Shown in pieces: positions 34,232 through 49,806 of a DNA stretch of 64,000 nucleotides. The first letter of the stretch is position 1; the number at the start of each line of letters is the position of its first letter. The notes beneath the pieces are model-generated. The model did not search any database. It had not been told where the DNA came from and saw nothing but the letters and a program-made list of their open reading frames with translations. A program made the translations under genes and the position numbers. The DNA is from an uncultured Rikenellaceae bacterium. GTDB taxonomy: Bacteria; Bacteroidota; Bacteroidia; Bacteroidales; VadinHA17. The stretch is taken from contig CAZTDW010000001.1 of assembly GCA_964611835.1 (NCBI GenBank), positions 14,033 through 78,032 on the forward strand. Direction: 5' to 3'.

Positions 34232-35719
34232 ATGCAACAATATTTAAAACTTAATCAGGAAAACCTTTTCCGGCTTCCGGCAGGAATAATGACCCCGGGA
34301 TATGACAGGCGGCAGGTGAAAGCCGGAATTATCCACATAGGAGTAGGAGCTTTTCACAGGTCACATCAGGCATATTATACCGACCTGATACTACGGGATA
34401 AAAAAAACTCAAACTGGGGCATCTGCGGGATCGCATTGCTGGAATCGGATATGCGTAACTACACTGCCCTGGCAGCCCAGGACGGACTTTATACACTAAC
34501 CGTTGCCAAACCTGACGGATCATCTGAAACAATGGTGCCAGGCTCTCTGATTGAATATATGTTTGCCCCGGAAAACCCTGATGCAGTGATTGAAAAGATC
34601 GGTAATCCGGATATAAAGATCATTACGCTTACAATCACCGAAGGAGGATATAATTTTAATACAGCCGGTGAGTTTCTGCTGAACGAACCGTCGGTCCAAT
34701 GGGATATCAACCATCCCGCTCAGCCGAAAACAGTATTCGGATACCTGGCTATGGGATTAAAGCGACGGATGGAGAGATCGCTGAAAGGATTAACGATCCA
34801 GTCGTGTGACAATATCCAGAAAAACGGGGATCTGCTGAAGAGAATGCTTTTGTCATTCATTAAAGTGTCGGACCCAGGCCTGGTCGCCTGGGTTGAAAAG
34901 GAAGTCACTTTTCCCAACAGCATGGTTGACAGGATAACTCCCGCGGCAACTGAAACTGATACTGAATACATCAGGAATTCTTTCGGGATTGAAGACAGAT
35001 GCCCTGTCGTTTGTGAACCATTCGTCCAGTGGGTTATCGAGGATAATTACGCACAGGGCAGGCCCGACTGGGAATCTGCGGGAGTTCAGTTTGCTGATGA
35101 TGTGGCTCCCTTTGAAAAAATGAAGATCCGCCTTCTGAATGCCGGACATTCACTTCTTGGATTTTTGGGCGCTCTGCATGGTTATACATATATTCATGAA
35201 GTAGTGAATGATCCGGTTTTTGCGCGGCTGCTGCGTGATTTTATGGATAATGAGGTAACACCGGTTCTGGATGAAGTGCCGGGAACAGATCTGAGCAGAT
35301 ATAAGGACAGTCTGTTGGAAAGGTTTGGAAATCCAAGGATAAGGGATAGGGTTGCAAGAATATGCCAGCAAAGCTCGGCAAAGATCCCAAAATTCCTGCT
35401 GCCAACTATTCATGATCAGCTTCGGAGGGGGGCGCCGGTGGAGCGTTCAGCGCTGGTGATCGCTGCGTGGTGCAGGTATGCTGAGGGCTTCGGTGAAAAT
35501 GGCAGCAAATATCAGATAGAGGATGAGATGAGCGATATCCTTCAGGAGAAAGCCATAGCTTCACATTTAAATCCTCTTGCTTTCCTTGAAATCGAAAAGG
35601 TTTTTGGGGATATCATCAGATCAGAAAGATTTACCAAAGCCTATTTGAGATCCCTGAATTGCCTGTATCATAAAGGAGCAGCAGCATGTGCCAGTGAATC
35701 AGTCGGCATTTCTTCTTGA
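34232..35719 (+). CDS. Mannitol dehydrogenase family oxidoreductase (mannitol/fructuronate/altronate type)
   Basis: The 495-aa ORF has IIHIGVGAFHRSHQAYY at the N-terminus and DRITP and LLNAGHS motifs. Confidence 0.8.
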   Translation: MQQYLKLNQENLFRLPAGIMTPGYDRRQVKAGIIHIGVGAFHRSHQAYYTDLILRDKKNSNWGICGIALLESDMRNYTALAAQDGLYTLTVAKPDGSSETMVPGSLIEYMFAPENPDAVIEKIGNPDIKIITLTITEGGYNFNTAGEFLLNEPSVQWDINHPAQPKTVFGYLAMGLKRRMERSLKGLTIQSCDNIQKNGDLLKRMLLSFIKVSDPGLVAWVEKEVTFPNSMVDRITPAATETDTEYIRNSFGIEDRCPVVCEPFVQWVIEDNYAQGRPDWESAGVQFADDVAPFEKMKIRLLNAGHSLLGFLGALHGYTYIHEVVNDPVFARLLRDFMDNEVTPVLDEVPGTDLSRYKDSLLERFGNPRIRDRVARICQQSSAKIPKFLLPTIHDQLRRGAPVERSALVIAAWCRYAEGFGENGSKYQIEDEMSDILQEKAIASHLNPLAFLEIEKVFGDIIRSERFTKAYLRSLNCLYHKGAAACASESVGISS

Positions 35720-36351
35720 TCTGAAGGATTGAGTTCATATGTGAATCCTTTTTCCGACGCATTGACCAGGATAATCTTCAATATTATCAGGTTTGCAAGT
35801 ATTGATTCAGCCCTGTATGGAGAGATGCGTGCTATTTTCCTGAATTTTGAAAGGGTTATCGGCCCTTTTTCCTTCAGATATTCCAGCAGCAGGTTTTCGG
35901 CTTTTCCAAACTTTACAAGAATTCCGGGGCTTTTTTCCTCTTTTCTCCAAACCTGAAGCAAAACCCTGTTGGCTTCCAGATTCTGATCATTATGCCTGAA
36001 GTAGGTTATCCATCTGCCGTTTTCATCCTTAACCTGATAAGGCCTGTGTTTTCCCCTGCTTACATCAACCTCGAGAATGGTCTTGTTTCCCGATGAATGC
36101 TGCCTTATGGTATAGGTTATTTCAGGCCTGCAATACAGATGGGCTGCGGTGTCGACCATATAGATCTCCTCATCGGTTTTTATTCCTGCTATGCTTCCGT
36201 TATCCCTCACTCCTATAAGTATCCTGCCACCGTCGCTGTTTGAAAAGGCGGAAAGGGTCCTGGCTATTTTCCTGCTGTCGGAGACACAGTACTTGAAATC
36301 AAGTTGCTGATTTTCTCCCCCCGATATCAGATCCCTTATATACCTTTCCAT
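35668..36351 (-). CDS. AlbA_2 (divergent AAA-4/Schlafen-like) putative DNA-binding domain protein
   Basis: The 227-aa ORF carries ENQQLDFKYCV...AFSNSDGGRILIGVRDNGSIAGI. Its 3' end overlaps the convergent mannitol dehydrogenase gene by 52 nt. Confidence 0.6.
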   Translation of the reverse strand: MERYIRDLISGGENQQLDFKYCVSDSRKIARTLSAFSNSDGGRILIGVRDNGSIAGIKTDEEIYMVDTAAHLYCRPEITYTIRQHSSGNKTILEVDVSRGKHRPYQVKDENGRWITYFRHNDQNLEANRVLLQVWRKEEKSPGILVKFGKAENLLLEYLKEKGPITLSKFRKIARISPYRAESILANLIILKIILVNASEKGFTYELNPSDQEEMPTDSLAHAAAPL

Positions 36352-37830: not shown

Positions 37831-39954
37831 TCACATAATAGCCTGATAAGCAAGATTTAAGAAAGGATTTTCTTCTTTTCTATTGTTTTTATCCCCGTAA
37901 ATCCTGAATTTTTTGCTTTCATAGAAAGTCCGTATTCCGTTTTTCCTTGTTATCAGAACCAGTTCTACCAATCCGCTTTCAGTGAACGGGACATTGAATT
38001 CACACTGAACTTCCCTATGCTGTCCAAGCTGTAGATCAGTATCCATTATTTTGTTGATCAGCAATTTACCCTGATCCTCCAGTCTTACTTCAATCTGGAT
38101 GGAATTCCCTGAAAAGCAATCGTTGTATAATACCAGTGTCCTTTTAACAATTTCTCCCGTTTTGATTTCAGGATATTTATTGTTTCTAAGCGCTTCAATG
38201 CCAAGATCATCATAATCCTTATCAAACAGTGCTACCGGTGCAAAGCTGTTTTTAAGGTTTTCATGCACCGGAGCAACTGTATCGACCGACCAGGACCAGT
38301 CAAGAGTGTAAGGCATAATCTGGGAAACATTGATATACCTTAAACCCCTGCACCAGGTCCCATGCCACCATTCTTTGCCATCGGTTCTGCCGAACAGGAA
38401 TTCGCCGATTCCCGTTGGTTTTGTCTTTGAGACCAGAGTATCCCAGCTGTATATGCTACCTTTCACGGTTTTGCCAACTCCTTCAGGATAATGATCGCTG
38501 TAAAAATCATCGCCCACATCAAAATCGCCCTCGGCGATCACCGGTCTGGTAGGATCCACGGCTCGAATACTGTCTGCAAGTGTTTTTATCTGTTTGTCGG
38601 AAAACCATTTAAGCCAGTCTCTGCCGATCTCATTTTCGGAGCTCCACATGATCACGGACGGATGATTCCTCCTGTCCCTGATCCAGGGTTTCAGCCAGGT
38701 GAGGGCATTCCTGAAATAAACCTCATTATTTGATTTGAGAATATAATCACGGGCATACATTGGCGATTCCTCAATTACCAGCAATCCGCGCTCATCTGCA
38801 ATATCTATTATCCTGGCTGATGCAGGCTGCTGATGAAAGCGCACGCACTGAATATTCATTAATTGCAGTCTGTCAATCGTATGATTCCATGTTTCAGGTG
38901 AAATATACCTGTATCTTCCTGAGTTATACCCCTGCCCGTGAGTATTGATGCTGGTTCCCCTGAGGTTAAGACGGTGCCCGTTGAACAGGAGCTCTGTTCC
39001 TTCGATCCAGATTTCCCTGAAACCAAATCTCCTGATTTCATTATCAATGGATTCCGCTTTCTTATACCTTTCTTTTATCATTACAGATGAGAAAAGATTA
39101 TACAAAACAGGATTTTCGGGACTCCATAATTCCGGATTATTCCAGGGGGATCTCACCCTGATTGTTCTTTTTTCTCCCGGAGTGAGAATAATTCTTTCAC
39201 TGGAAATAATAAGGTCAGCTTCAGGTTCCTCCTTTGCACTTATCTCTCCCTTTATCTGTACCTCCTGTTTTTCACCTGACTGATTTACCAGATCATAATC
39301 GATGGTAATATCTTTTTTTCTCCATGATGTCTGAATAAAAGCATCTTCGATATATACCGTCCCGTAAGCCCTTAACCATGTGTCAAATATTATTCCCCAG
39401 CGGCTTTCATGTCCATACCATCCCACGGGCCATTGAGGGATACCATTTTCATCGGAAACAGGAGGATGGTTACCTCCTTTTACAACCACCTTAAGTTTGA
39501 CTGTTTCTCCGGCCTTTGCCAGATTTGTAATATCAACTTTGAAAGGGGTCCATCCGCCGACATGTTTCAGAAGGAACTTTTCGTTCAGGTAAACATCGGC
39601 AATATGATTTATCCCTTCAAATTCGATTTTGATTATTTTATCTTTCCATGTTTCAGGAATTTTCATCTCCCGTTCATAAATACCGGTACTTGTGGACGGG
39701 ACAGTTACCTCACGTGTAACTTTCTCTCCCCGGTCATTTTCAAATTCCCTTTGTACTTTTTTGGTAAATCCGGGTGCTGCATCCCAGAATTCGGGAACTG
39801 GGATAGTTGTTTTTTCTCCTGTTTCCGTTGTAAAATTCCATATCCCGTTCAGCGACAATTGTTCGCGCAGGGCAGGAGCCTGAGATAAGCCGGGCAGGAC
39901 TTTCGGCAGGATCATTATGATCACGGTAAATGCAGTGAATCTGGTCTTATTCAT
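37831..39954 (-). CDS. GH2-family glycoside hydrolase (beta-galactosidase/glucuronidase-like)
   Basis: The 707-aa ORF has a signal peptide, an N-terminal sugar-binding region and NHPSVIMWSSENEIG (the acid/base region). Confidence 0.8.
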   Translation of the reverse strand: MNKTRFTAFTVIIMILPKVLPGLSQAPALREQLSLNGIWNFTTETGEKTTIPVPEFWDAAPGFTKKVQREFENDRGEKVTREVTVPSTSTGIYEREMKIPETWKDKIIKIEFEGINHIADVYLNEKFLLKHVGGWTPFKVDITNLAKAGETVKLKVVVKGGNHPPVSDENGIPQWPVGWYGHESRWGIIFDTWLRAYGTVYIEDAFIQTSWRKKDITIDYDLVNQSGEKQEVQIKGEISAKEEPEADLIISSERIILTPGEKRTIRVRSPWNNPELWSPENPVLYNLFSSVMIKERYKKAESIDNEIRRFGFREIWIEGTELLFNGHRLNLRGTSINTHGQGYNSGRYRYISPETWNHTIDRLQLMNIQCVRFHQQPASARIIDIADERGLLVIEESPMYARDYILKSNNEVYFRNALTWLKPWIRDRRNHPSVIMWSSENEIGRDWLKWFSDKQIKTLADSIRAVDPTRPVIAEGDFDVGDDFYSDHYPEGVGKTVKGSIYSWDTLVSKTKPTGIGEFLFGRTDGKEWWHGTWCRGLRYINVSQIMPYTLDWSWSVDTVAPVHENLKNSFAPVALFDKDYDDLGIEALRNNKYPEIKTGEIVKRTLVLYNDCFSGNSIQIEVRLEDQGKLLINKIMDTDLQLGQHREVQCEFNVPFTESGLVELVLITRKNGIRTFYESKKFRIYGDKNNRKEENPFLNLAYQAIM

Positions 39955-39970
39955 TTGAAATGGTTTTTAC

Positions 39971-39978
39971 CAAATTTA
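39971..39978 (-). promoter_or_regulatory. -7 promoter element (TAAATTTG) for the GH2 gene
   Basis: Exact TAnnTTTG match on the minus strand, 16 nt upstream of the ATG at 39954. Confidence 0.45.
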
Positions 39979-40164
39979 AGATTTTATTATTTCTATTCCT
40001 GCCTGAATGGCACTATGGCAGATATTATTACAAAAACCTGAATTTACTTGACTTTTGCTTTTCTCTCCCGTAACTTTGATATAATCAGGTTCTCTAAAAA
40101 CTCTTTTTCAAACAAGGATAAAAGCGCATCAGGCTTGGAAGTTTAATCTAAATAACGTGAACCT

Positions 40165-41460
40165 ATGAAGACAATAATCAATGCATTCCTGGTGTTCCTG
40201 TTTTTAGTACTCTATGTGATATGCCCGGGATGCAAAAAGGTAAAACTGCCCTCCGTGGAAACGGTCCAGATAAGCGATATAACGGAAAATGCAGCTGTTA
40301 TTAATTACAAGATCACCGAAGATGGCGGAGGATCAATAAGTTATCATGGAGTTTGCTGGGATTTAAGTACGGATCCCACAACTAACCTCACAACTAAAAC
40401 TATTGAACAGGGTGGCCCTTACGGAAGTTCCTACGGGGAATACTGGGCTTCAATTACAGGGCTCGAATTTGGCAAAACTTACCATGTAAGAGCTTATGCG
40501 ACCAATCCGGCAGGAACCTCCTATGGCAAGGATTTAACTTTCAGCACCAGGACCATCGGTCCTCCGGCAGGAGTTAAAACAAAATCCGTTTCAGCCCTGG
40601 GATCCTGGGCAGTAATTTCAGGAGGCAGCTTCACTTCTGTGGGAGGATCATCAGAGGTTGAATGCGGGCTTTGCTGGGATTTAGTACAAGGGCCAACTAC
40701 CGGATCAAACAAGATCTTTTATAATTCCTCTGATGTATTCTCATTTACAAGCATAATGACAAACCTTGCTCCCAATACCACTTATTTTGCCAGAGCCTAT
40801 GTTTCCAATCCCGCAGGAACAGTTTATGGCAATGAGATCTCCGTAACAACAACATCAAATGTGACCGATGTAGAGAACAGGACATATCATACAGTCAATA
40901 TCGGCACGCAGGTGTGGCTTATGGAGAATCTTGCCACGACAAAATTCAATGACGGCAGTCCCATCCCTCAGATTACCAGCCAGCCAACGTGGGACAACCT
41001 GTCCACTCCTGCTTTCTGCTGGTTTAATAATGAAAAGCCACTGGCAGATGACTTCAGGGGTGCACTTTATAACTGGCATGCAGTTAATACAGGTAAACTT
41101 TGTCCGGCAGGCTTTCATGTTCCTACCATTGATGAATGGAATGCTATGACGGAATATCTTGGGGGATCTGCAGCCGCAGCCGGGGAAATGCTGAAGCCTA
41201 ATGAAATGCAATGGGGAGATGTTGAATACGGTGTTATCAGCGACAGTTGTCTTTTCTGGGGAATTTTATGCGGGACAAGGGATACCATTGTCGGATTTCA
41301 GGGACTTACCGGATGCGGAATATATGAGACTTCCCATTACTGGTCATCAACTCCCGAAGGAACTTCACAGGCATGGGCTTTTGTACTTTATATGGGAAGT
41401 ACTGATAAACATGAATTCAGCCGGAAAAACGGTTATTCAGTGAGATGCCTGAAAGATTGA
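40165..41460 (+). CDS. FISUMP-domain lipoprotein (Fibrobacter succinogenes major paralogous domain) with two N-terminal Ig/Fn3-like repeats
   Basis: The 431-aa ORF has a duplicated module (...CWDLSTDPTT...YHVRAYATNPAGTSYG and ...CWDLVQGPTT...YFARAYVSNPAGTVYG). The FISUMP core follows: TVNIGTQVWLMENL...GYSVRCLKD. Confidence 0.8.
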   Translation: MKTIINAFLVFLFLVLYVICPGCKKVKLPSVETVQISDITENAAVINYKITEDGGGSISYHGVCWDLSTDPTTNLTTKTIEQGGPYGSSYGEYWASITGLEFGKTYHVRAYATNPAGTSYGKDLTFSTRTIGPPAGVKTKSVSALGSWAVISGGSFTSVGGSSEVECGLCWDLVQGPTTGSNKIFYNSSDVFSFTSIMTNLAPNTTYFARAYVSNPAGTVYGNEISVTTTSNVTDVENRTYHTVNIGTQVWLMENLATTKFNDGSPIPQITSQPTWDNLSTPAFCWFNNEKPLADDFRGALYNWHAVNTGKLCPAGFHVPTIDEWNAMTEYLGGSAAAAGEMLKPNEMQWGDVEYGVISDSCLFWGILCGTRDTIVGFQGLTGCGIYETSHYWSSTPEGTSQAWAFVLYMGSTDKHEFSRKNGYSVRCLKD

Positions 41461-41473
41461 AACAATTTCCCTG

Positions 41474-42106
41474 ATGACGGAGCAAACACCAATCCTGAAA
41501 GCCCTTAACATCCGGAAGTCATTCGGGAGAAACAGAGTGCTTAAAGGGATCGACCTTGAACTTTTTCCCGGAAAAATATACGGGATCGTAGGTGAGAACG
41601 GAACCGGAAAGACAACATTATTGAATATCCTTGCCGGATTCTGGAAACAGGATGAGGGTACCATTAATATCAGTTGCTCCATGGGTTTTTGTCCCCAGTC
41701 ACCTTTTCTTTTTTCCAATCTTACCGTGAATGAAAACCTGAAATTGTTTGAACTTGCCTACGGCCTGAATTGCGAAACCGGGGACGAAAAAAAGTCTGAA
41801 TACAGGGAATCATTGATCAGAACTTTCAAACTTCAGGATTACGGCAGATGCCAGTGCTCAAAGCTTAGTGAAGGCACCCGCCAGAAGCTGAATCTGGTCG
41901 TTTCTCTTTTGCATGATCCTGATCTTTTATTGCTCGATGAACCCTATTCGTCGTTTGACTGGGATACTTATTTGATGTTCCGCGATTTTTCTGAAAGCCT
42001 GATCAGTCGGGGAAAGACCATTCTGATCATAGCTCACTTTATTTATGATAAAAGTAAACTAGATATGATCTGGGAATTGAAGAATGGATTGCTTACATGC
42101 AACTGA
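41474..42106 (+). CDS. ABC transporter ATP-binding protein
   Basis: The 210-aa ORF carries Walker A GENGTGKTT, the signature LSEGTRQK and Walker B LLLLDEP. Confidence 0.85.
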   Translation: MTEQTPILKALNIRKSFGRNRVLKGIDLELFPGKIYGIVGENGTGKTTLLNILAGFWKQDEGTINISCSMGFCPQSPFLFSNLTVNENLKLFELAYGLNCETGDEKKSEYRESLIRTFKLQDYGRCQCSKLSEGTRQKLNLVVSLLHDPDLLLLDEPYSSFDWDTYLMFRDFSESLISRGKTILIIAHFIYDKSKLDMIWELKNGLLTCN

Positions 42107-42873
42107 AAAAGATATCATATAACCTCAGGCTTCTTTTCCTGGAAACATTCAGAAGCAGGATAACCTTGCTGCTTCTGATACTTTTACCGGCTGTTTTTTA
42201 CATCATAGCAATTTATACTACCAGTACTGTCCCGATCCTGATAAAAATAGCCTCTGCTCCGGGGAATGGGGTCTTCCTGATTGAGCCAAGGGAAATAGGG
42301 CTGATCTATATAGGTCTGGCAGCAACCGGATTCATCGCATCATTCTTTGCCATGAACCTTATGCAAAAGAACACCATGGCCAAAAAGAGGCAGATATTGT
42401 GCGGTTACACCATATTTGAACTCTGCCTTTCCAAGTTCCTGCTGATTCTGACTGTTGTCATGTTACTTGGGATCTATACCTCATTACTGGGTATTATTCT
42501 GATGGATCCGAAGCATATCCCCGGCATCGTGCTTGGATACATTCTTTGCGGGTTTGTCTATGGTTCATTCGGGCTTCTGGCTGGCGCTGTCTTTAATCGC
42601 GAACTTGAAGGGATACTGGTCATTGTCCTTCTGGCAAATCTCGATATAGGATGGCTGCAAAATCCAATATTCTATGCTGCAGCGCCCGGCAAGATGATTA
42701 TAAAGTATCTGCCCGGCTTCAATCCGTCACAGGTGGCAATTGTCTCAGCCTTCACCGATTTTACGGCAGGCCGGCAGGTACTTCTCAGCCTTATGTACGG
42801 ATCGCTTTTTCTTGTCATATCAATGATAATCTTCGGAATAAAGATGAAAATGCTGTCAGGATCCAGATCCTGA
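42097..42873 (+). CDS. ABC-2-type transporter permease
   Basis: The 258-aa ORF has six hydrophobic helices. It overlaps the ATPase gene by 10 nt. Confidence 0.65.
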   Translation: MQLKKISYNLRLLFLETFRSRITLLLLILLPAVFYIIAIYTTSTVPILIKIASAPGNGVFLIEPREIGLIYIGLAATGFIASFFAMNLMQKNTMAKKRQILCGYTIFELCLSKFLLILTVVMLLGIYTSLLGIILMDPKHIPGIVLGYILCGFVYGSFGLLAGAVFNRELEGILVIVLLANLDIGWLQNPIFYAAAPGKMIIKYLPGFNPSQVAIVSAFTDFTAGRQVLLSLMYGSLFLVISMIIFGIKMKMLSGSRS

Positions 42874-42931
42874 AGGCGTAAACCACTTGGACAGATTGAC
42901 TAATTAATAATCATTATACCAGACATCCAGA

Positions 42932-43741
42932 TTGAAGCCGGTTTTCAACATATTCAGGCATAAAAAGTTCAGGCTTGAAAAACTCTACTGTGACTCGGTT
43001 GATGATTCAGGCAACTGCTTCATCGTTTACCTGGCAAAGCTTGATTGCCGGTTTGTCAGTTTCTGTTATTCAGGGCTTATCCATATTGACGGGAAAGGCT
43101 TTGTAACCGGAAGTTCATCTTTTAAAGGGATCGCTATCCCGGGTGGAAAAATATTGAAAATTAATGTTGAAGAACCGGAAATCGAAGGGACATGGAAAAG
43201 TACTGATTCTCCGCTTGTTCGCACACTGCTCAGGGATGAGGATAATGGCGATCTGATCTGGAACTGTCATCATCCAAAAGCGGCAACTGAGATAAGATAT
43301 GACAACATGCTTTATAAAGGCAAAGGCTATGCTGAAACGCTTGTTTTGCCCATGATGCCTTACAGGTTGCCGGTTGATGAAATAAGGTGGGGACGTTTTC
43401 TATCAGATGCAACAACTGTCATATGGATCTGCTGGAAGGGAGCCAGGCCTCTTAATATACTGTTCCTCAACGGTTGCGAGTATTCTGATGCTGAGTTTTC
43501 AGTGAATGGAATAACATTCGGTGAAAAGCTTTTCCGCCTGAGTTTTTCTGAGGTCAGAATAATCAGAAAAGGCACATTTGACGATCTGTTTCCGGGAAAA
43601 CCAATCCTTAAGTTTATCATCGGGAGAAGGATACTGAAAAGCATGGAAACCAAGTATATTGCAAAAACAACCTTCAGCAGGAATTCAATTTTTACTGCAT
43701 CGGGATGGTCAATTTATGAAGAAGTAATATGGAGAAGATAA
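42932..43741 (+). CDS. Hypothetical protein (possibly AttH/CrtC-like beta-rich fold; unverified)
   Basis: The 269-aa ORF has a TTG start and no signal peptide. I am not certain of the family. Its 3' end overlaps the next gene by 13 nt. Confidence 0.5.
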   Translation: MKPVFNIFRHKKFRLEKLYCDSVDDSGNCFIVYLAKLDCRFVSFCYSGLIHIDGKGFVTGSSSFKGIAIPGGKILKINVEEPEIEGTWKSTDSPLVRTLLRDEDNGDLIWNCHHPKAATEIRYDNMLYKGKGYAETLVLPMMPYRLPVDEIRWGRFLSDATTVIWICWKGARPLNILFLNGCEYSDAEFSVNGITFGEKLFRLSFSEVRIIRKGTFDDLFPGKPILKFIIGRRILKSMETKYIAKTTFSRNSIFTASGWSIYEEVIWRR

Positions 43742-45660
43742 AACATCTGACTGCGAAGACTTTATATGGCACGCTGTTTGTGGCGGCAGTTCCGCTTTTT
43801 CTTGTTTTATGGGCTCATTATACGGAGGAGGTTGTAAGTTTGCCGGTTCCTTTAAGCAGATCATTTGGTTACATACTGATAGTTGCAGGTTTTTCGGTAC
43901 TTGTCATTGGAATTTATTATATCATGACGGTCGGGAAGGGCCTTCCCATGAATGCCTTCCCTCCTGAAAAGTTCGTTAAGAGCGGTATTTATAGTGTTTT
44001 AAAGCATCCGATATATACCGGAGCCGTACTGATAAGCTTTGGAGTGTCAGCAGCAGCGCAGTCAGCATCCGGATTCTGGCTTGTGAGCCCTGTGTTTGTT
44101 TTGCTCGTTACAGCCTTTGTTACCGGATTTGAGAATGAACGCACATTGGCCGTTTTCGGGCCTCAGGATTATAAAACTTTCTTTTCACTACCGGATGATT
44201 CGGATGAAAAACCGTCAATATCCGACAGGATCACAACTTATGTTTTTGCTTGTCTGCCGGTTATTATCCTGTTTTGGATGATCAGGTATAAAGGAGCTTC
44301 CGCCGACTCGCTTCCCGTAAGGCTTGATTTTGAAAAAGCATGGCCGGCCAGTGAAGTTTCTGCTGTGTTATTTTTGTTCACATTTATTCCATTCCTGATA
44401 GTTCCCATCGTTGCTAAAACAAAACAATATCTGAGGAATTATACAGGTGATATGCTTTCTGGTTCGATCGCAGCCGGACTCCTGTACTTTGTATTTCCAT
44501 TATCTGTTGAACGGATTGATTTTACGCCTCAGACATTTGCAGGAGGACTGATCATGTCATTGCGGCAGCCTGGAGTTGTCGATGGGGCATTAGCCGGAAT
44601 AAGTATATTTTGTACGCTTATTCCCTTAAAATATCTTGCGCCTGTTTCAGGATATAAAAGTCTGATCTGGTATTTTACTGCAGCACTGTTTTTGTTTTCC
44701 GGGATCACCTCCGGAAACTATTCTCTGATTTCTTCCGTGGCAGGATTGTTGATTTTCATTCTGATAATATTCAGGACAGAGATCTGGAATTCCGTAAGGA
44801 TGTTATCGGAAAGAATTGCCAACAGCTGGAAGGAATGGAGATTCGGTCCCCTAAGGATTATCAACCATGGCTTTTATGGAGGTGCTTCGGGTTTTGCCGG
44901 GATGCTGATCGCAGGATCATTTCTGGGGAAGGAGGTTTTTGCAGGGTTTGTTGTGATAGTAGCCATGATAGTCGGCGCCGGACTATGGGCGCAGGTTATT
45001 GAAGGTTCCTCAAAACTTTTAAGGCCATACGGGTACTATGGAGGGCTCCTGGGCGGGATTATCGCCTGTGTGTTGGTATCACTTCTTACGCCGGTGCATT
45101 TCTTTTACATCCTCGGGGCTTTTGCCATGGCGGCGCCGTGGATACAGTGCTTCGGGAGGCTCAGATGCCTTGTCCAGGGATGCTGCCACGGCAAACCATC
45201 CGGAAGCGGGATAGGTCTGAGGTTTGATCATCCCAAATCAAGGGTAATCAGGATTTCAGGATTGAAGGGAGTCTACCTTCATCCCACGCAGCTTTATTCG
45301 GTCGGAACAAACATTGTCACGGGGCTGATCCTGATCAGGCTTTACAGTCTGGGGATGCCTTCTGCCTTTATCTGTGGCATCTATATGATACTTAACGGCA
45401 CGGGGCGTTTTGTTGAGGAGGCATTCAGGGGCGAGGCACAGACGCCATACTGGCTGGGGATGAGGATCTACCAGTGGATAGCGATTGCCGCTATTCTGAC
45501 GGGGATTGTCTTTACACTCTTTACCGGAACGGGACCGCTGGTATTCAGGGCTAATATTGAGTCATTGTATCTGGCGGTCATTTCAGGGATTATAGTCACA
45601 TTCGCCTCAGGAGCGGATTTTCCGGAATCGGACCGCCGGTTTGCGAGGCTTACGAGCTGA
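43729..45660 (+). CDS. Polytopic membrane fusion: ICMT/PEMT-like methyltransferase domain + central TM region + Lgt-like (prolipoprotein diacylglyceryl transferase family) domain
   Basis: The 643-aa ORF's N-terminal part has FVKSGIYSVLKHPIYTG...ENERTLAVFGPQDYKTF, the ICMT-type pattern. The C-terminal part has FGRLRCLVQGCCHGKPS, HPTQLYS and GTGRFVEEAFRGE, which are Lgt-type patterns. Confidence 0.65.
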   Translation: MEKIKHLTAKTLYGTLFVAAVPLFLVLWAHYTEEVVSLPVPLSRSFGYILIVAGFSVLVIGIYYIMTVGKGLPMNAFPPEKFVKSGIYSVLKHPIYTGAVLISFGVSAAAQSASGFWLVSPVFVLLVTAFVTGFENERTLAVFGPQDYKTFFSLPDDSDEKPSISDRITTYVFACLPVIILFWMIRYKGASADSLPVRLDFEKAWPASEVSAVLFLFTFIPFLIVPIVAKTKQYLRNYTGDMLSGSIAAGLLYFVFPLSVERIDFTPQTFAGGLIMSLRQPGVVDGALAGISIFCTLIPLKYLAPVSGYKSLIWYFTAALFLFSGITSGNYSLISSVAGLLIFILIIFRTEIWNSVRMLSERIANSWKEWRFGPLRIINHGFYGGASGFAGMLIAGSFLGKEVFAGFVVIVAMIVGAGLWAQVIEGSSKLLRPYGYYGGLLGGIIACVLVSLLTPVHFFYILGAFAMAAPWIQCFGRLRCLVQGCCHGKPSGSGIGLRFDHPKSRVIRISGLKGVYLHPTQLYSVGTNIVTGLILIRLYSLGMPSAFICGIYMILNGTGRFVEEAFRGEAQTPYWLGMRIYQWIAIAAILTGIVFTLFTGTGPLVFRANIESLYLAVISGIIVTFASGADFPESDRRFARLTS

Positions 45661-45692
45661 GTGATCTGTTGAATAAATATTTTAATCTTGCT

Positions 45693-45714
45693 GTCAGATC
45701 AGATCTGACTTTTT
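45693..45714 (+). terminator. Rho-independent terminator-like hairpin
   Basis: GTCAGAT-cag-ATCTGAC is followed by TTTTT, 33 nt after the stop at 45660. Confidence 0.55.
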
Positions 45715-45731
45715 ACATCAGGAAAATTCAG

Positions 45732-45842
45732 TTAAGAACTTTCACAAAGACACACAGAGAAGTCACTAAGAACCATAGAGTTTGAGAAATTGTCCTTTGT
45801 GGAACTTTGAGGTTCTCAGAGGCCCTCAGTGCAAGTTCTTAA
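45732..45842. repeat. Long imperfect palindrome with phased CACAAAG-type then CTTTGTG-type heptads
   Basis: The outer arms are perfect 10-bp complements: TTAAGAACTT (45732-41) and AAGTTCTTAA (45833-42). The inner left units are CACAAAG/CACAGAG/CACTAAG/CATAGAG. The inner right units are CTTTGTG/CTTTGAG/CTCAGAG/CTCAGTG, at about 10-nt spacing. Confidence 0.65.
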
Positions 45843-46102
45843 AAGTATTTCAGTTCTGTCCAACTCTTTAGAGATACCAAAATGTATTGTTACGTGGTTG
45901 AGCCATACAGCCAGGTAAAGATTAGATACCTGAATGACTTTAAATGTATTGGTCAATTAAAACTGATGTCTGATCAAAAAATTTGGCAGCTTCATCAAAT
46001 ATCATCTTAGCCTGATCAAAATATGTTGGAGAAGCTTCCGATCGGATGTAACTTTAATATTCAGTTAACAAAATGCACACCTGAACCAAACCAAAAACAT
46101 TT

Positions 46103-47587
46103 ATGAAAAATTTTTTGTTATTCTGGGTCAGGTTCCCTAAAATTTTTACGGGAATCCTGGTAGCGGTAATTCTTTTCGGGTGCCAGAAGGACTATTTCGA
46201 GACGAATACTGCCGGATCTGAGTCATTGTCGGCCTCTGCGGTGGCTGTGAATCCTGAAACCAATTTCATGGTTATTACAAAATCTGAAACGCTTCCATCA
46301 GATTTTGAGTCGAAGCTCGCCGCCTATGGCGAGATTGTAAATACCATTCCTGAGATAGGGGTGGTAGTTGTTAAACCCAAGGTTGCAAATTTTGCTACCA
46401 AAGTTGCAAAGCTCACACAGGTTAAGGGTGTGGTGCCTGATTATAAAGCTAAGTGGCTTGATCCGGTTAAGTTTGTTCCGGAAGCAAATCCGCCAAGTAT
46501 TGGAGATGATGAGGACTGGTTCGGAATACAATGGGGTATGGATGCCATTGATGCACCTGAAGCATGGAATGCGGGATACACAGGAGAAGGAGCAACGGTA
46601 TTCATACTTGACAGTGGTATTGATGCTGACAATCCTGATCTTGCTCCAAATCTTAATACTTCATTATGTACATCTTTTGTTCCTAACGAAGAATATAATG
46701 TCGCTGATTATCATTATGATGAGGATTTAGATGAAGATGTTTGCGCATATTTTAACCATGGCACCCATGTTGCAGGAATAATAGCTGCTGCAGATAATAC
46801 TTGGGGAGTAATTGGTGTAGCTCCTCATGCTGAAATTGTTGCTGTAAAGGTCCTTTCTGAGTTTGATGGTTCTGGTGAGTTCAGCTGGGTAAATTCAGGT
46901 ATTGTTTATGCGGCCAATAATGGTGCTGATGTGATAAATATGAGTCTGGGTGCTACCTTGAACAGAAATGGTTGGTTTTTAAATGATGATGACGAATGGG
47001 AAAAAGTACCGGCTGTAGTTTTACAATATATAATTCTTGCACAGCAAAGGGCAGTGAATTATGCAATAAGAAAAGGCTCTGTCATTATTGCTTCTGCAGG
47101 AAATGATGAAATGAACGCAGATGGAAATGCAGCATGGTTCAAATTACCGGCTGACTGTGAAAATGTTTTGGCAGTTTCAGCAACTGCTCCGGATTATTGG
47201 TACAATTCTGTAATAAATGGACTAGTACCAAATTTAGATATCCCAGCTAGTTATACCAACTATGGTAGATCTCTGGTTGACCTTGCAGCACCCGGAGGTG
47301 ATTATGACTTTTACAACTCAGCAGGATGGTTTTATGATATGATATTAAGCTCAAGTGCTGGAACAAGCACATGTGAGTATCCTTTTTACTTTGCTGCCGG
47401 TACCAGCATGGCTGCTCCCCATGCATCAGGTGTTGCCGCTCTCATCATTGGTAAAAATGGTGGAGATATGAATCCGGTGCAGGTGACTCAACAGCTGCTT
47501 CAGACTGCTGATAATATAGATGGTACAGGGGTTACCTCTTATTTCGGACATGGCAGGGTCAATGCCTACAGGGCTGTAACGGAATAA
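46103..47587 (+). CDS. S8 (subtilisin-family) serine peptidase, secreted
   Basis: The 494-aa ORF has the catalytic motifs FILDSGID (Asp), HGTHVAGIIAA (His) and GTSMAAPHASG (Ser), plus an N-terminal signal/anchor. Confidence 0.9.
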   Translation: MKNFLLFWVRFPKIFTGILVAVILFGCQKDYFETNTAGSESLSASAVAVNPETNFMVITKSETLPSDFESKLAAYGEIVNTIPEIGVVVVKPKVANFATKVAKLTQVKGVVPDYKAKWLDPVKFVPEANPPSIGDDEDWFGIQWGMDAIDAPEAWNAGYTGEGATVFILDSGIDADNPDLAPNLNTSLCTSFVPNEEYNVADYHYDEDLDEDVCAYFNHGTHVAGIIAAADNTWGVIGVAPHAEIVAVKVLSEFDGSGEFSWVNSGIVYAANNGADVINMSLGATLNRNGWFLNDDDEWEKVPAVVLQYIILAQQRAVNYAIRKGSVIIASAGNDEMNADGNAAWFKLPADCENVLAVSATAPDYWYNSVINGLVPNLDIPASYTNYGRSLVDLAAPGGDYDFYNSAGWFYDMILSSSAGTSTCEYPFYFAAGTSMAAPHASGVAALIIGKNGGDMNPVQVTQQLLQTADNIDGTGVTSYFGHGRVNAYRAVTE

Positions 47588-47874: not shown

Positions 47875-49806
47875 TCAACTAACAGAACCAATTGCATAAA
47901 CCTTCTTTGCCCTGACCTTTATAAAATCGTTTATTTCATGTTCAACGTTTTTATTCCGGCTGAGCCGGTTTCGGCCGATATCGGCCACGGCACGCAGTAA
48001 TTCGTCTATGTCTTCCTTTGTGTTGCCTATTCCAAGACTTACCCTTGCCAGCCCGGGGAATTTGATAACAGGGAACAGAATGGCCATCAGATGCTGGAAC
48101 CGTTCCAGAAACGGACCTACGCCGACCAGATGCTTGATCAGTATATGTGCACAATGACAACCATATCTGATCCCTATACCCCTTCTTATGGCAAGCTCTT
48201 TTGCAATCTTGTCGGCAAAAATGCCATTGAGGCTGAATACTATCACACCACCTTTATGATCAAACTGCGGCGATTGCGGATCAGTAAATCCGTACAGCTG
48301 AATACCCTTTATTTCAGACAATCCCTGAATTGTTTTGGCTGTAAGGATCCTTTCCTCCTCCCGGATAAGATCAAGGCCGACCCTCAGCAAAAGTACCATT
48401 GCTTTTCCTAGTGCAGCAATACCTGCAACATTTTCCTCACCTGACTGACTTTTTTGTTTAAGCTCGTCAAAGCTGAAATTAAGTAACCCTTTTTTCGCAA
48501 CGAGCACTCCGGTTCCAAAAGGGGCATAAACCTTATGACCTGAGAAGGCAAGAAAATCAATTCCCCAGCGATCCATTTCAGTTCTGCGATGGGCTACCAG
48601 CTGTGCTGCGTCAACCAACAGCTGTGCCCCGTACTTGTGCGCTAAACGGCTTATCCCTTCCAGATCATTGAATACACCGAGCACATTTGAAGCACCACTG
48701 ACTGCCACAAGCCTTATGCGTTTTTTACCGTGCTGATTAAGCTGATTATATGAATTCAGTAAAGAGTCCAGTTCATTAAGATCGATCAAACCATCCGGAC
48801 TGATCTGCATCCTTAAAAGCGTGCTTCCTGATAACATTCTCCAGGGAAGATCATTCGAGTTATGTTCAAGCATTGTGTTCAGCACAACTGTTTCATCCTC
48901 CTTCACTTGATCCAGACTTTCAGCTACCAGGTTTATTGCTTCGGTTGTATTGGATAAAAATATGACCTCATGGTCATTTCTGCCGGCTCCGACCAGTTCA
49001 AGACAAATAGATTTTACTTCCTTAATGATCTCTTTATGAATCCTTTCTTCCTGCCTCCACACCTGGCATACAGCTTTCCAGACGGGAGCAAGCGCCTGTG
49101 TGCTGGCGCCATTGTCCAGATTAATATATTGTTTGATTCCTTCCATTGTCGGAACCCTTGTATTTAGACCAATAAGGGTTTGCCTGAGCTTTTCAAGCAA
49201 ATCCTTACCTGAGAATTTATCGAATTCGTCACGATATAAAATATCAAACGACGAAAGTTCAGTTGTTTTACCGTCATCCGGCCTGTCTGTGTCATTGCGT
49301 TTTATAAGCTGCAGTGCACGGGTAAAAGCTATGATATTGATTATCGCCGGAGTCCCTGCCTCAAACTTTTCGGGAGCTTTAGCCCATACAATCCATTTTG
49401 GTGCAATCAATCTGGTAGTTCCTCCTCCGGCCTGAAAGGGAATTCCTCCGGGCAGTGCCTTTCTTTCAACAGCAAGCACATCAACACCAAGAGGTAATCC
49501 TATATCGCGGCTTGATAATAAATGATAACTGTCTTTTTTCAGTTTGGATGCAAAAATCTTTGCCCTATCCGGACTGCAAAAAATTACCACATATTTATTT
49601 TTATCAAGCTCCAGATAATTCAGTATGATTTCCCTGGCCTGTTCAAATAGATGTGTGGTGACCATAGAAAAATGGCCGCTACCCCGATGGACATTGGAAT
49701 AAGTCTCAAGTGTTGCATAAACAGCATCCTCGAGGTGATCAAAGAAATTTACCCTATTACTGACCGTTTCATCCGGATAAGTTTCAGGATTTTTTGACAG
49801 ACCCAT
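47875..49806 (-). CDS. Aminotransferase class V-fold PLP-dependent enzyme (cysteine-desulfurase-like), unusually long
   Basis: The 643-aa ORF has a PLP-lysine motif AFSGHKVYAPFGTGVLV in the C-terminal module. The N-terminal roughly 200 aa carry a second set of class-V-like blocks (SNVHRGSGHFS, FEAGTPAI). Confidence 0.75.
   Translation of the reverse strand: MGLSKNPETYPDETVSNRVNFFDHLEDAVYATLETYSNVHRGSGHFSMVTTHLFEQAREIILNYLELDKNKYVVIFCSPDRAKIFASKLKKDSYHLLSSRDIGLPLGVDVLAVERKALPGGIPFQAGGGTTRLIAPKWIVWAKAPEKFEAGTPAIINIIAFTRALQLIKRNDTDRPDDGKTTELSSFDILYRDEFDKFSGKDLLEKLRQTLIGLNTRVPTMEGIKQYINLDNGASTQALAPVWKAVCQVWRQEERIHKEIIKEVKSICLELVGAGRNDHEVIFLSNTTEAINLVAESLDQVKEDETVVLNTMLEHNSNDLPWRMLSGSTLLRMQISPDGLIDLNELDSLLNSYNQLNQHGKKRIRLVAVSGASNVLGVFNDLEGISRLAHKYGAQLLVDAAQLVAHRRTEMDRWGIDFLAFSGHKVYAPFGTGVLVAKKGLLNFSFDELKQKSQSGEENVAGIAALGKAMVLLLRVGLDLIREEERILTAKTIQGLSEIKGIQLYGFTDPQSPQFDHKGGVIVFSLNGIFADKIAKELAIRRGIGIRYGCHCAHILIKHLVGVGPFLERFQHLMAILFPVIKFPGLARVSLGIGNTKEDIDELLRAVADIGRNRLSRNKNVEHEINDFIKVRAKKVYAIGSVS

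Follow-up and report, generated by a model that had tools for sequence, protein, structure and literature searches.

Does a gene that resembles lgt, the gene for prolipoprotein diacylglyceryl transferase, still serve lipoprotein maturation when it encodes additional enzyme domains and follows a closely spaced set of transporter genes, or does it belong to a different lipid pathway? This question is raised by a locus in a stretch of 64,000 nucleotides from an uncultured Rikenellaceae bacterium (contig CAZTDW010000001.1; the whole stretch is referred to below as the window). Four open reading frames (ORFs), all on the forward strand, encode the ATPase and the permease of an ABC-2 type transporter, a 269-aa protein, and a 643-aa polytopic fusion protein whose gene comes last (Table 1); the first two overlap by 10 nt, the second and third are 58 nt apart, and the last two overlap by 13 nt. 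The original prediction, made from the sequence alone, had described this locus as a possible module for lipid-on-cysteine modification and export. Every coordinate that it gave was reproduced, and all of the motifs that it quoted for the fusion protein were found, namely SGIYSVLKHPIYTG at aa 85-98 and FENERTLAVFGPQDY at aa 133-148 in the N-terminal domain, and GRLRCLVQGCCHG at aa 476-488, HPTQLY at aa 518-523 and GRFVEEAFRG at aa 559-568 in the C-terminal domain. Our analysis points instead to a widespread membrane-lipid modification module with export that is distinct from the lipoprotein Lgt of the cell, a reading to which we assign a probability of about one half.

In the databases, the fusion protein is named "prolipoprotein diacylglyceryl transferase family protein" or "Ste14", and its 269-aa partner is a "hypothetical protein"; both annotations are corrected by the present analysis. 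We found no published description of the fusion architecture or of the module in the literature, and the "lipocone" paper mentions lgt only in another context (PMC12419801). All of the component domains belong to known families; the new features are the probable inversion of the Lgt-like domain, its rebuilt active site, a strict partner, and a dedicated exporter.

An Lgt-like domain with a rebuilt active site

Lgt has so far been seen as a single-purpose, periplasm-facing starter of lipoprotein maturation, and as an antibiotic target. The predicted assignment of the C-terminal domain of the fusion protein to this family was borne out by the Pfam model LGT (PF01790), which scores 76.9 bits against a cut-off of 24.9 over aa 435-596, although only profile positions 85-238 of 240 are covered. 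In a Foldseek search with the AlphaFold2 (AF2) model of the fusion protein, E. coli Lgt (5azb) was the top and sole significant Protein Data Bank (PDB) match (E 2e-4, prob 1.0, TMt 0.51, 285 columns), while a sequence-profile search of the fusion family against the PDB did not reach the PDB Lgt at E<=1. The domain, which is the most conserved portion of the fusion protein, shares with E. coli Lgt (5azb/5azc) the fold, a beta-hairpin arm before the first helix, the H196-P-x-Q-L-Y motif, and the phosphate-binding pair R143/R239. It differs from E. coli Lgt in having a short and basic head loop in place of an acidic head of about 50 residues, in an extra C-terminal transmembrane (TM) helix followed by a conserved DFPxSxRRFARLTS tail, and in being fused behind two other enzyme domains.

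The active site has been rebuilt around a retained core. In a MAFFT alignment with E. coli Lgt (sequence taken from NC_000913.3), residues R143, G154, H196, R239, E243, and R246 are kept, and H103, N146, E151, Y235, and E202 are replaced by Y, C, C, N, and S, respectively. The equivalents of R143, R239, and G154, namely R477, R560, and G488, are invariant among 86 orthologs spanning all phyla, and the replacing residues Y437 (equivalent to H103), C480 (N146), and C485 (E151) are essentially so, the cysteines being part of a C-x4-CCH motif: the set Y437, R477, C480, C485, C486, H487, G488, R560, E564, and R567 is identical in 85 of the 86, the remaining one having Phe at position 437. The position of Y235 is variable (N/S/T/A). 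In E. coli Lgt, activity is lost in the variants H103A/N/Q/R/Y and E151A/Q, the lipobox peptide is proposed to bind at H103GGL, R143 marks the catalytic center, and the cavity has its opening on the periplasmic side (PMC4728403). The first TM helix of E. coli Lgt, which contains Y26, is aligned unreliably by MAFFT; Y383, located after the predicted arm-1 hairpin and invariant in 20 orthologs, may be the counterpart of Y26, which would be plausible under the inverted topology described below.

These features bear on the simplest explanation, namely that the gene is a normal housekeeping lgt that has been extended at its N-terminus and has its neighbors by chance, as the Pfam LGT match and the NCBI naming of the orthologs would have it. 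We regard this as extremely improbable. The NCBIfam equivalog models for Lgt score far below their cut-offs (45.9 vs. 118.9 for TIGR00544 and 71.3 vs. 334 for NF000778). The replacement of N146 and of H103 and E151, which are essential, argues against a housekeeping Lgt, as does the apparently inverted orientation, in which the cavity is predicted to face the cytoplasm. Moreover, in a scan of one genome per species, relatives of the fusion protein are encoded in 469 of 185,579 species genomes, scattered over more than 10 phyla, which is too few for a housekeeping enzyme, and the gene has a strictly conserved neighbor (see below). A sole ordinary lgt with a common extension and variable neighbors, which the original prediction had itself raised as an alternative, is not what is seen.

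Another Lgt-like variant was noticed next to one of the related loci (denoted here by L numbers). In a Bacteroidales metagenome-assembled genome (MAG), the gene L008:2915-4744 (+), located 140 nt upstream of the gene for the homolog of the 269-aa protein, encodes a 609-aa protein with a full-length LGT match (aa 17-259), the signature IGCFFYGCCFGKPS, no equivalent of R143, and a beta-rich C-terminal region of about 350 aa ending in YRFGHK. We considered it as a canonical Lgt coexisting with the module and rejected it, its signature being that of another GCC-type variant.

Methyltransferase domain and predicted membrane orientation

The N-terminal domain had been assigned to the ICMT/PEMT methyltransferases, and this assignment stood. 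The Pfam model PEMT (PF04191) matches aa 45-144 at profile positions 4-103 of 105 with 33.8 bits against a cut-off of 25, ICMT (PF04140) stays just under its cut-off (22.2 vs. 24 bits), and the NCBIfam model isopcys_mtase (NF040696) scores 16.7 vs. 160, i.e., below the level of an isoprenylcysteine O-methyltransferase equivalog. The HPxYxG motif and E135 are nearly invariant among the 86 orthologs and the downstream FG...Y is more variable; these elements may correspond to the S-adenosylmethionine (SAM) site of ICMT known from the structure of Ma-ICMT. The domain is similar to the PEMT/ICMT (Ste14) family in being polytopic, in carrying its motifs in predicted cytoplasmic loops, and in matching PF04191 over nearly its full length, but it is close to no named enzyme and is always fused to a lipid-transferase domain. 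A member of this group, LmtA, is said to be similar to Ste14. Enzymes of the PEMT/ICMT type have been shown to methylate bacterial membrane lipids: the phospholipid N-methyltransferase relative OlsG methylates ornithine lipid (PMC12971839), and the membrane methyltransferase LmtA methylates the 1-phosphate of lipid A (PMC4402001).

The position of this domain allows the orientation of the Lgt-like domain to be predicted. The methyltransferase domain has four predicted TM helices, and loop charges place its catalytic motifs on the cytoplasmic side; they must face the cytoplasm because SAM is found there, and the K/R-rich N-terminus and loops agree with this. The middle domain has a core of six TM helices related to PAP2 enzymes, with its motifs predicted on the outer (periplasmic) face. 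Since the methyltransferase domain and the PAP2 core would both end in the cytoplasm, the arm-1 hairpin of the Lgt-like domain would begin on the cytoplasmic side, in contrast to its periplasmic start in E. coli Lgt. In two-domain variants, the C-terminus of the methyltransferase leads directly to the Lgt arm-1 through a short non-hydrophobic linker.

The distribution of charges within the Lgt-like domain was assessed as the mean number of K and R residues per loop in 81 orthologs, the loops being matched to those of E. coli Lgt. The loops homologous to E. coli periplasmic loops have means of 5.1, 1.5, 4.9, 0.4, and 3.0, and those homologous to cytoplasmic loops have means of 0.3, 0.1, 0.1, and 0.5. 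This pattern is the reverse of that in E. coli Lgt itself, whose cytoplasmic loops contain 4, 4, 3, and 2 such residues and whose periplasmic loops contain 0, 1, 3, and 1. Eight TM helices are predicted for the Lgt-like domain, compared with seven in E. coli Lgt, which is N-out and C-in, and the inverted topology requires a hairpin of residues 381-399 and 403-425 with the turn G-[KRHP]-x-[YD]. We therefore consider it most likely, as judged from loop charges and domain order, that the Lgt-like domain is inverted and that its cavity is open toward the cytoplasmic leaflet, next to the site of the methyltransferase and to the AttH-like partner described in the next section. A cavity facing the cytoplasm would not act on exported prolipoproteins.

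The AttH-like partner and its conserved linkage

The 269-aa protein had been suggested to be AttH/CrtC-like. The fold part of this suggestion was supported by Foldseek: the AF2 model, with a predicted local distance difference test score (pLDDT) of 87.8, matches AttH (2ich, NE1406), kievitone hydratase (7a0q), 25-phosphosteroid lyase (9g2i), Fsa2 (7e5t), and Phm7/CghA-type pericyclases (best E 1e-7 to 7e-7, TMq 0.5-0.59), and every one of the 24 PDB chains at E<=1e-3 belongs to the AttH/CrtC fold family (TMq 0.45-0.59). The corresponding sequence match was not obtained, with no Pfam (including PF07143) or NCBIfam hit at E<=0.1 and chance matches only when the family was searched against the PDB by sequence. 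The protein shares the double beta-barrel fold with CrtC, kievitone hydratase, Hgs, 25-phosphosteroid lyase, and AttH, but it is shorter (269 aa vs. 320-370 aa in AttH/CrtC-like enzymes) and cytoplasmic, having no signal peptide. In its family, 45 residues are invariant, among them D21, D24, H113, H114, E135, and R155 and those of the motifs WNCHHP, GYxE, WGR, and GWS; the first three of these motifs are not known from CrtC.

The characterized enzymes with an AttH/CrtC fold catalyze hydrations or eliminations at C=C bonds in lipids and isoprenoids. AttH takes its name from the attEFGH ABC locus of Agrobacterium, to which we liken the association with an ABC transporter seen here. A role in a carotenoid pathway, as for CrtC, was rejected since no crt genes are linked to the module and its carriers include Bacteroidales MAGs, which we assume to have an anaerobic, carotenoid-free lifestyle. 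In another system, an AttH-like hydratase makes hydroxylated glycerol dialkyl glycerol tetraether (hydroxy-GDGT) lipids downstream of a radical-SAM desaturase (bioRxiv 10.1101/2025.10.20.683597). As with Hgs/Ted, the AttH-like gene in our module is coupled to genes for membrane-lipid enzymes, and in sister loci to those for radical-SAM enzymes.

A protein search with the 643-aa query returned more than 2,500 relatives, the best 120 of which are nearly all about 645 aa long and mostly from Bacteroidales; the fusion family forms about 270 clusters (50% identity, E<=1e-30). Its carriers in the genome scan include Bacteroidota, Acidobacteriota, Nitrospirota, Gemmatimonadota, Myxococcota, Planctomycetota, and Desulfobacterota, as well as Neisseria and Capnocytophaga. 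Of the 80 best loci, in which linkage was counted, 76 have the AttH-like gene as the immediate upstream neighbor of the fusion gene; among the four exceptions, two have the fusion gene at the end of a contig. The overlaps between the two genes are mostly 4-13 nt, which suggests translational coupling. In addition, three Rosetta-stone proteins (P0269, P0278, and P0357; 854-906 aa) have the AttH-like domain fused N-terminally to the three-domain protein, and among the cluster representatives there are also two-domain forms that lack PAP2, as well as Lgt-like proteins that stand alone. All-against-all clustering of the neighbors in the 80 loci revealed no third conserved gene, and tblastn against plasmids gave no match. 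In about 80 loci, the 700 nt flanking the module on each side were searched for a conserved small ORF that could encode a peptide substrate, and none was found beyond close relatives, in agreement with the earlier remark that no substrate gene is obvious.

Three loci have unexpected taxonomic labels. The modules on contigs named Synechococcus sp. UW140 (L051) and Glaesserella sp. (L042/L048) cluster with Bacteroidota-like sequences, and the neighbors in L051 match those in L041, L066, and L083; these labels may reflect binning errors.

The ABC transporter and PlsC-type sister systems

The ATPase matches ABC_tran (PF00005, 3.2e-26, 93 bits), and its best NCBIfam models are NodI and DrrA, all far under their cut-offs. 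The permease scores 28.4 against a cut-off of 31.6 for PF12698 (ABC2_membrane_3), and many of its orthologs have a precomputed PF12698 match; its family is small, with 108 clusters and no NCBIfam model. The pair is similar to DrrAB, NodIJ, Wzm/Wzt, and TarGH (ABC-2, type V) in combining a short ATPase with a separate, putative six-TM permease encoded by overlapping genes, but the permease here belongs to a small family found almost only beside modules with a PEMT fusion and an AttH-like protein. A defense-system function was dropped, as PADLOC gave generic P-loop matches for the ATPase and none for the other three proteins.

Orthologs of the ATPase adjoin the module in L006, L013, L049, L085, and L087, a minority of the module loci. 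The gene order is Fib_succ-ATPase-permease-AttH-fusion in L006 and AttH-ATPase-permease-fusion in L049 (a Thermodesulfovibrionales MAG), and in L013 the ABC pair is on the opposite strand from the module. A Pyrinomonadaceae locus contains genes for an AttH-like protein, the ATPase, the permease, and a PEMT+LGT protein. An Aminicenantes locus comprises genes for a radical-SAM enzyme, an AttH-like protein, a PEMT+LGT protein, a separate PAP2 protein, the ATPase, the permease, an Orn/DAP/Arg decarboxylase, and an aldehyde dehydrogenase. Seen from the permease, 10 or 11 of about 13 independent contexts (11 with the cut locus L089) carry a fusion of PEMT with an Lgt-like or PlsC-like domain together with an AttH-like gene, and two lack the module. 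The view of the four genes as a functional unit is upheld by this recurrence: in four further lineages, from unrelated phyla, the transporter genes accompany the module, and the gene order differs among them. The ABC-2 pair is a dedicated but optional accessory of a wider class that combines an AttH-like protein with a PEMT fusion, and export is not obligatory because most module loci lack the pair.

In several sister loci of this class, which share the permease family, a homologous PEMT-type methyltransferase domain carries a PlsC-type acyltransferase domain (PF01553) in the place of the Lgt-like domain. These loci also encode a 308-338-aa protein, assigned to the same AttH-like family by an iterated jackhmmer search; genes for a radical-SAM/SPASM enzyme are frequent in them, and some have a PAP2_3 gene of their own. 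The interchangeability of the Lgt-like domain with a PlsC-type acyltransferase domain is our strongest indication of a lipid product. Since PlsC-type enzymes use cytoplasmic acyl donors, the replacement also agrees with a predicted cytoplasm-facing site in the Lgt-like domain.

In five loci (L092, L093, L095, L097, and L089), the PEMT+PlsC fusion, the radical-SAM/SPASM enzyme, the AttH-like protein, and a separate PAP2_3 protein occur with the same ABC-2 pair; apparently, these clusters represent a further undescribed lipid gene cluster. Their pairing of radical-SAM and AttH-like proteins recalls the archaeal Ted/Hgs system, in which desaturation of a lipid tail is followed by hydration. A decarboxylase of the Orn/DAP/Arg type, which depends on pyridoxal phosphate (PLP), is encoded beside the ABC genes in three unrelated loci (L085:6762-9631, L091:3077-4927, and L013:2748-3905 (-)), followed in two of the three by an aldehyde dehydrogenase gene; L013 additionally has a DegT-type aminotransferase gene. 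These neighbors may hint at an amine head group or substrate.

The sister systems also bear on the rival explanation that is closest to the original prediction, in which a protein or peptide is lipidated at the cytoplasmic face: the Lgt-like domain would S-alkylate, with diacylglycerol, a cysteine of a protein or peptide that is cytoplasmic or anchored in the membrane, the ICMT-like domain would methylate its carboxylate by analogy with CaaX processing, and the ABC-2 transporter would secrete the lipopeptide. Both Lgt and ICMT are best known for their action on lipid-modified cysteines, and the inverted topology would put the two active sites on one face of the membrane. Furthermore, ATPases of this ABC-2 class resemble exporters of lantibiotics, bacteriocins, and phenol-soluble modulins (PSM) in NCBIfam, and the invariant Cys/His cluster could activate a thiol via a metal ion; the zinc-dependent protein farnesyltransferase has been contrasted with Lgt (PMC4728403). 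We nevertheless judge this explanation rather unlikely, since the H103GGL lipobox site is not conserved, no substrate gene accompanies the module in 80 loci, domain 1 is better described as PEMT than as ICMT, and the enzyme that takes the place of the Lgt-like domain is a glycerolipid acyltransferase. In addition, the characterized AttH-fold enzymes work on lipids or isoprenoids. The lipid-on-cysteine idea was thus not sustained, given the loss of H103, N146, and E151 and the predicted cytoplasmic cavity; cysteine lipidation of a protein is supported by nothing found here, and a lipid pathway is most likely.

The PAP2_3-like middle domain

The fusion protein had been described as consisting of two domains. 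Both of these stand, but between them lies a third domain, overlooked in the original prediction, which in orthologs belongs to the PAP2_3/PAP2 type of head-group phosphotransferases and phosphatases. In the 643-aa protein itself, this middle domain has no Pfam match at E<=0.1, but most relatives, including orthologs at about 55% identity, have precomputed PAP2_3/PAP2 matches (PF14378/PF01569) between the terminal domains. Foldseek with the AF2 model of the fusion protein retrieved, at high probability, inositol phosphorylceramide (IPC) synthase (9vj4, 0.96) and the sphingomyelin synthase-related protein SMSr (8ijq, 0.91). The domain is similar to Aur1/IPC synthase and SMSr in its six-TM core and, in orthologs, in the S-x-H ... 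H-x3-D motifs at the outer face. Unlike these PAP2_3 enzymes, the fusion protein has AGIS...Y...S in place of the triad: the ortholog motifs PSFH and (S/T)GxHSxxDV are changed to AGIS and SGNYSLISSV in this protein and its three closest relatives, with S292, Y331, and S335 at the triad positions. The His/His/Asp triad is kept in 73 of 87 scored sequences and lost in the clade of the window, in L006 and L087, and in a few others. As judged from these substitutions, the PAP2_3 domain is probably catalytically dead in this lineage and retained as a scaffold. In comparison with the relative P0003, the methyltransferase domain is 63%, the PAP2-like domain 55%, and the Lgt-like domain 90% identical. 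Accordingly, the PAP2-like domain evolves faster than its neighbors in this clade, whereas the first two domains are about equally conserved in clades with an intact triad.

Of the five independent lineages in which the fused architecture occurs together with the ABC pair, three have lost the triad, compared with about six of some 70 loci without the pair. The exporter and the periplasmic PAP2 step may thus be functionally linked or alternatives to each other, this comparison being uncorrected for phylogeny.

Another rival explanation, which narrows the lipid hypothesis to a particular substrate, is that the module modifies lipid A, lipopolysaccharide (LPS), or another envelope glycolipid. The Ste14-like domain would methylate a lipid phosphate, as LmtA does, the PAP2 domain would remove or transfer a phosphate at the periplasmic face, as LpxE, LpxF, and LpxT do, and the Lgt-like domain would add a lipid substituent. 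The 80 best-matching genomes are named as diderm lineages, there are precedents in LmtA, LpxE, and LpxT (PMC4402001), and a predicted periplasmic PAP2 domain together with predicted cytoplasmic methyltransferase motifs would fit both sides of flipping by MsbA. However, lpx, kdo, or other LPS genes are not recurrent nearby, the PAP2 domain is of the PAP2_3/IPC-synthase type, its triad is dispensable in several lineages, and the PlsC-type replacement suits glycerolipids better, so that we consider this substrate quite unlikely.

The decay of the PAP2 domain to a scaffold in this clade and the naming of AttH after an ABC locus are also compatible with detoxification or resistance. In this case, the AttH-like protein would bind a hydrophobic xenobiotic or toxic metabolite, which would be methylated and then expelled by the ABC-2 exporter, whose ATPase is of the DrrA/NodI/lantibiotic-protection class, and the PAP2- and Lgt-like domains would serve solely as a membrane scaffold. 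We find this very unlikely. The Lgt-like domain is far better conserved than the methyltransferase domain in the comparison given above, and its polar motif is invariant across phyla, which argues against a passive scaffold; moreover, the ABC pair is missing at most loci, and PADLOC gave no specific match.

Proposed pathway and points against it

We propose the following order of steps for the membrane-lipid modification module. In the cytoplasmic leaflet, a phospholipid would donate its diacylglyceryl group, or a similar alkyl group, to an acceptor other than a lipoprotein, in a transfer catalyzed by the Lgt-like domain, and the same lipid would then be modified by the AttH-like partner and the methyltransferase domain. 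Where the ABC-2 exporter is present, as it is here, it would carry the product to the outer leaflet or outwards, and an intact PAP2_3 domain, where present, would complete the head group on the periplasmic face. The domain identities, the residue changes, the linkage of the genes, the Rosetta-stone fusions, and the specificity of the ABC partner are observed; from them we predict the inverted orientation, the lipid nature of the substrate, and the order of the steps. In its most specific form, this proposal amounts to an upside-down Lgt fold with a Cys/Cys/Cys/His cluster that transfers an alkyl group to a non-lipoprotein acceptor and that, together with the AttH-like protein, the methyltransferase, and an ABC-2 flippase, produces a new methylated lipid in Bacteroidota, Acidobacteriota, and other two-membrane bacteria; we advance this form tentatively, as a possibility that we would not yet favor over all others combined.

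Several points weigh against the proposal. The AF2 model of the fusion protein has a pLDDT of 65.9, falling under 50 in the methyltransferase domain, and, from a shallow alignment, it draws residues 381-425 as a single 45-residue helix where the inversion needs a hairpin. To our knowledge, all characterized Lgt enzymes act on proteins, and some members of the ICMT family methylate carboxyl groups of proteins. Both here and in L006, the gene immediately upstream of the module is predicted to encode a lipoprotein, and most module loci lack the ABC pair. Finally, a canonical Lgt was looked for in the window and in the fetched loci, and none was found there.

If the proposal is true, the Lgt fold has a second chemistry, and an undescribed lipid class or a non-canonical form of lipidation would be indicated in abundant bacteria of gut, digester, peat, and soil. 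Cultured carriers of the module include Capnocytophaga stomatis, Neisseria wadsworthii, Niabella spp., Paenimyroides tangerinum, and Minicystis rosea.

Features of the locus and genomic surroundings

Table 1. Features of the module and its immediate flanks, in coordinates of the window.
Feature	Position	Strand	Basis
Fib_succ_major-domain predicted lipoprotein, 431 aa	40165-41460	+	Pfam PF09603, 1.7e-31
ABC transporter ATP-binding protein, 210 aa	41474-42106	+	PF00005; DrrA/NodI-like ABC-2 class
ABC-2 type permease, 258 aa	42097-42873	+	PF12698 below cut-off; small module-dedicated family
AttH/CrtC-like double beta-barrel protein, 269 aa, TTG start	42932-43741	+	AF2 model and Foldseek
Three-domain fusion protein, 643 aa	43729-45660	+	Pfam PEMT and LGT, PAP2_3-like middle
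Fusion domain 1, PEMT/ICMT-type SAM methyltransferase, aa 1-150	43729-44178	+	PF04191
Fusion domain 2, six-TM PAP2_3-like, aa ~160-350	44206-44778	+	PF14378/PF01569 in orthologs, fold match
Fusion domain 3, "GCC-type" Lgt-like, aa ~351-643	44779-45660	+	PF01790, fold match to 5azb
Terminator-like hairpin followed by TTTTT	45693-45709	+	Consensus match only, just 3' of the last stop

The stop codon of the Fib_succ_major gene is 13 nt ahead of the ATPase start, and the gene is probably cotranscribed with the module. The same order of Fib_succ_major gene and ATPase gene recurs only in L002-L005 and L006, and the other module loci have no Fib_succ_major gene, which we regard as a non-core component. 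The encoded protein has two N-terminal fibronectin-III-like repeats and an atypical lipobox (VICPGC|KK), and its counterpart in L006 has a typical one (FFSSC|KRE). The two lineages that have kept this position upstream of the ABC genes share only about 55% identity in their fusion proteins.

Downstream, the hairpin listed in Table 1 probably marks the 3' end of the transcription unit, although the total count of terminator-like sites in the promoter and terminator scan of the region was not above the shuffled expectation, and the scan as a whole did not exceed chance. An Rfam scan of positions 39000-47000 revealed no RNA elements at E<=0.1.

Among the flanking genes, a subtilase (Peptidase_S8, 3e-53) with the lipobox LFGC|QKDYFE is encoded at 46103-47587 (+), 443 nt downstream of the module, a position conserved only in the closest relatives (L002-L005). 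The QKDYFE stretch after its lipobox resembles the export signal of Bacteroidota surface lipoproteins. The gene at 47875-49806 (-) encodes a 643-aa protein similar to class-V aminotransferases and cysteine desulfurases (Aminotran_5, 6e-80), with an N-terminal extension of about 230 aa that has no Pfam match. A few kb upstream of the module, the gene at 35668-36351 (-) is syntenic in the closest relative, L002, where its equivalent has an SLFN/AlbA_2 domain match (PF04326).

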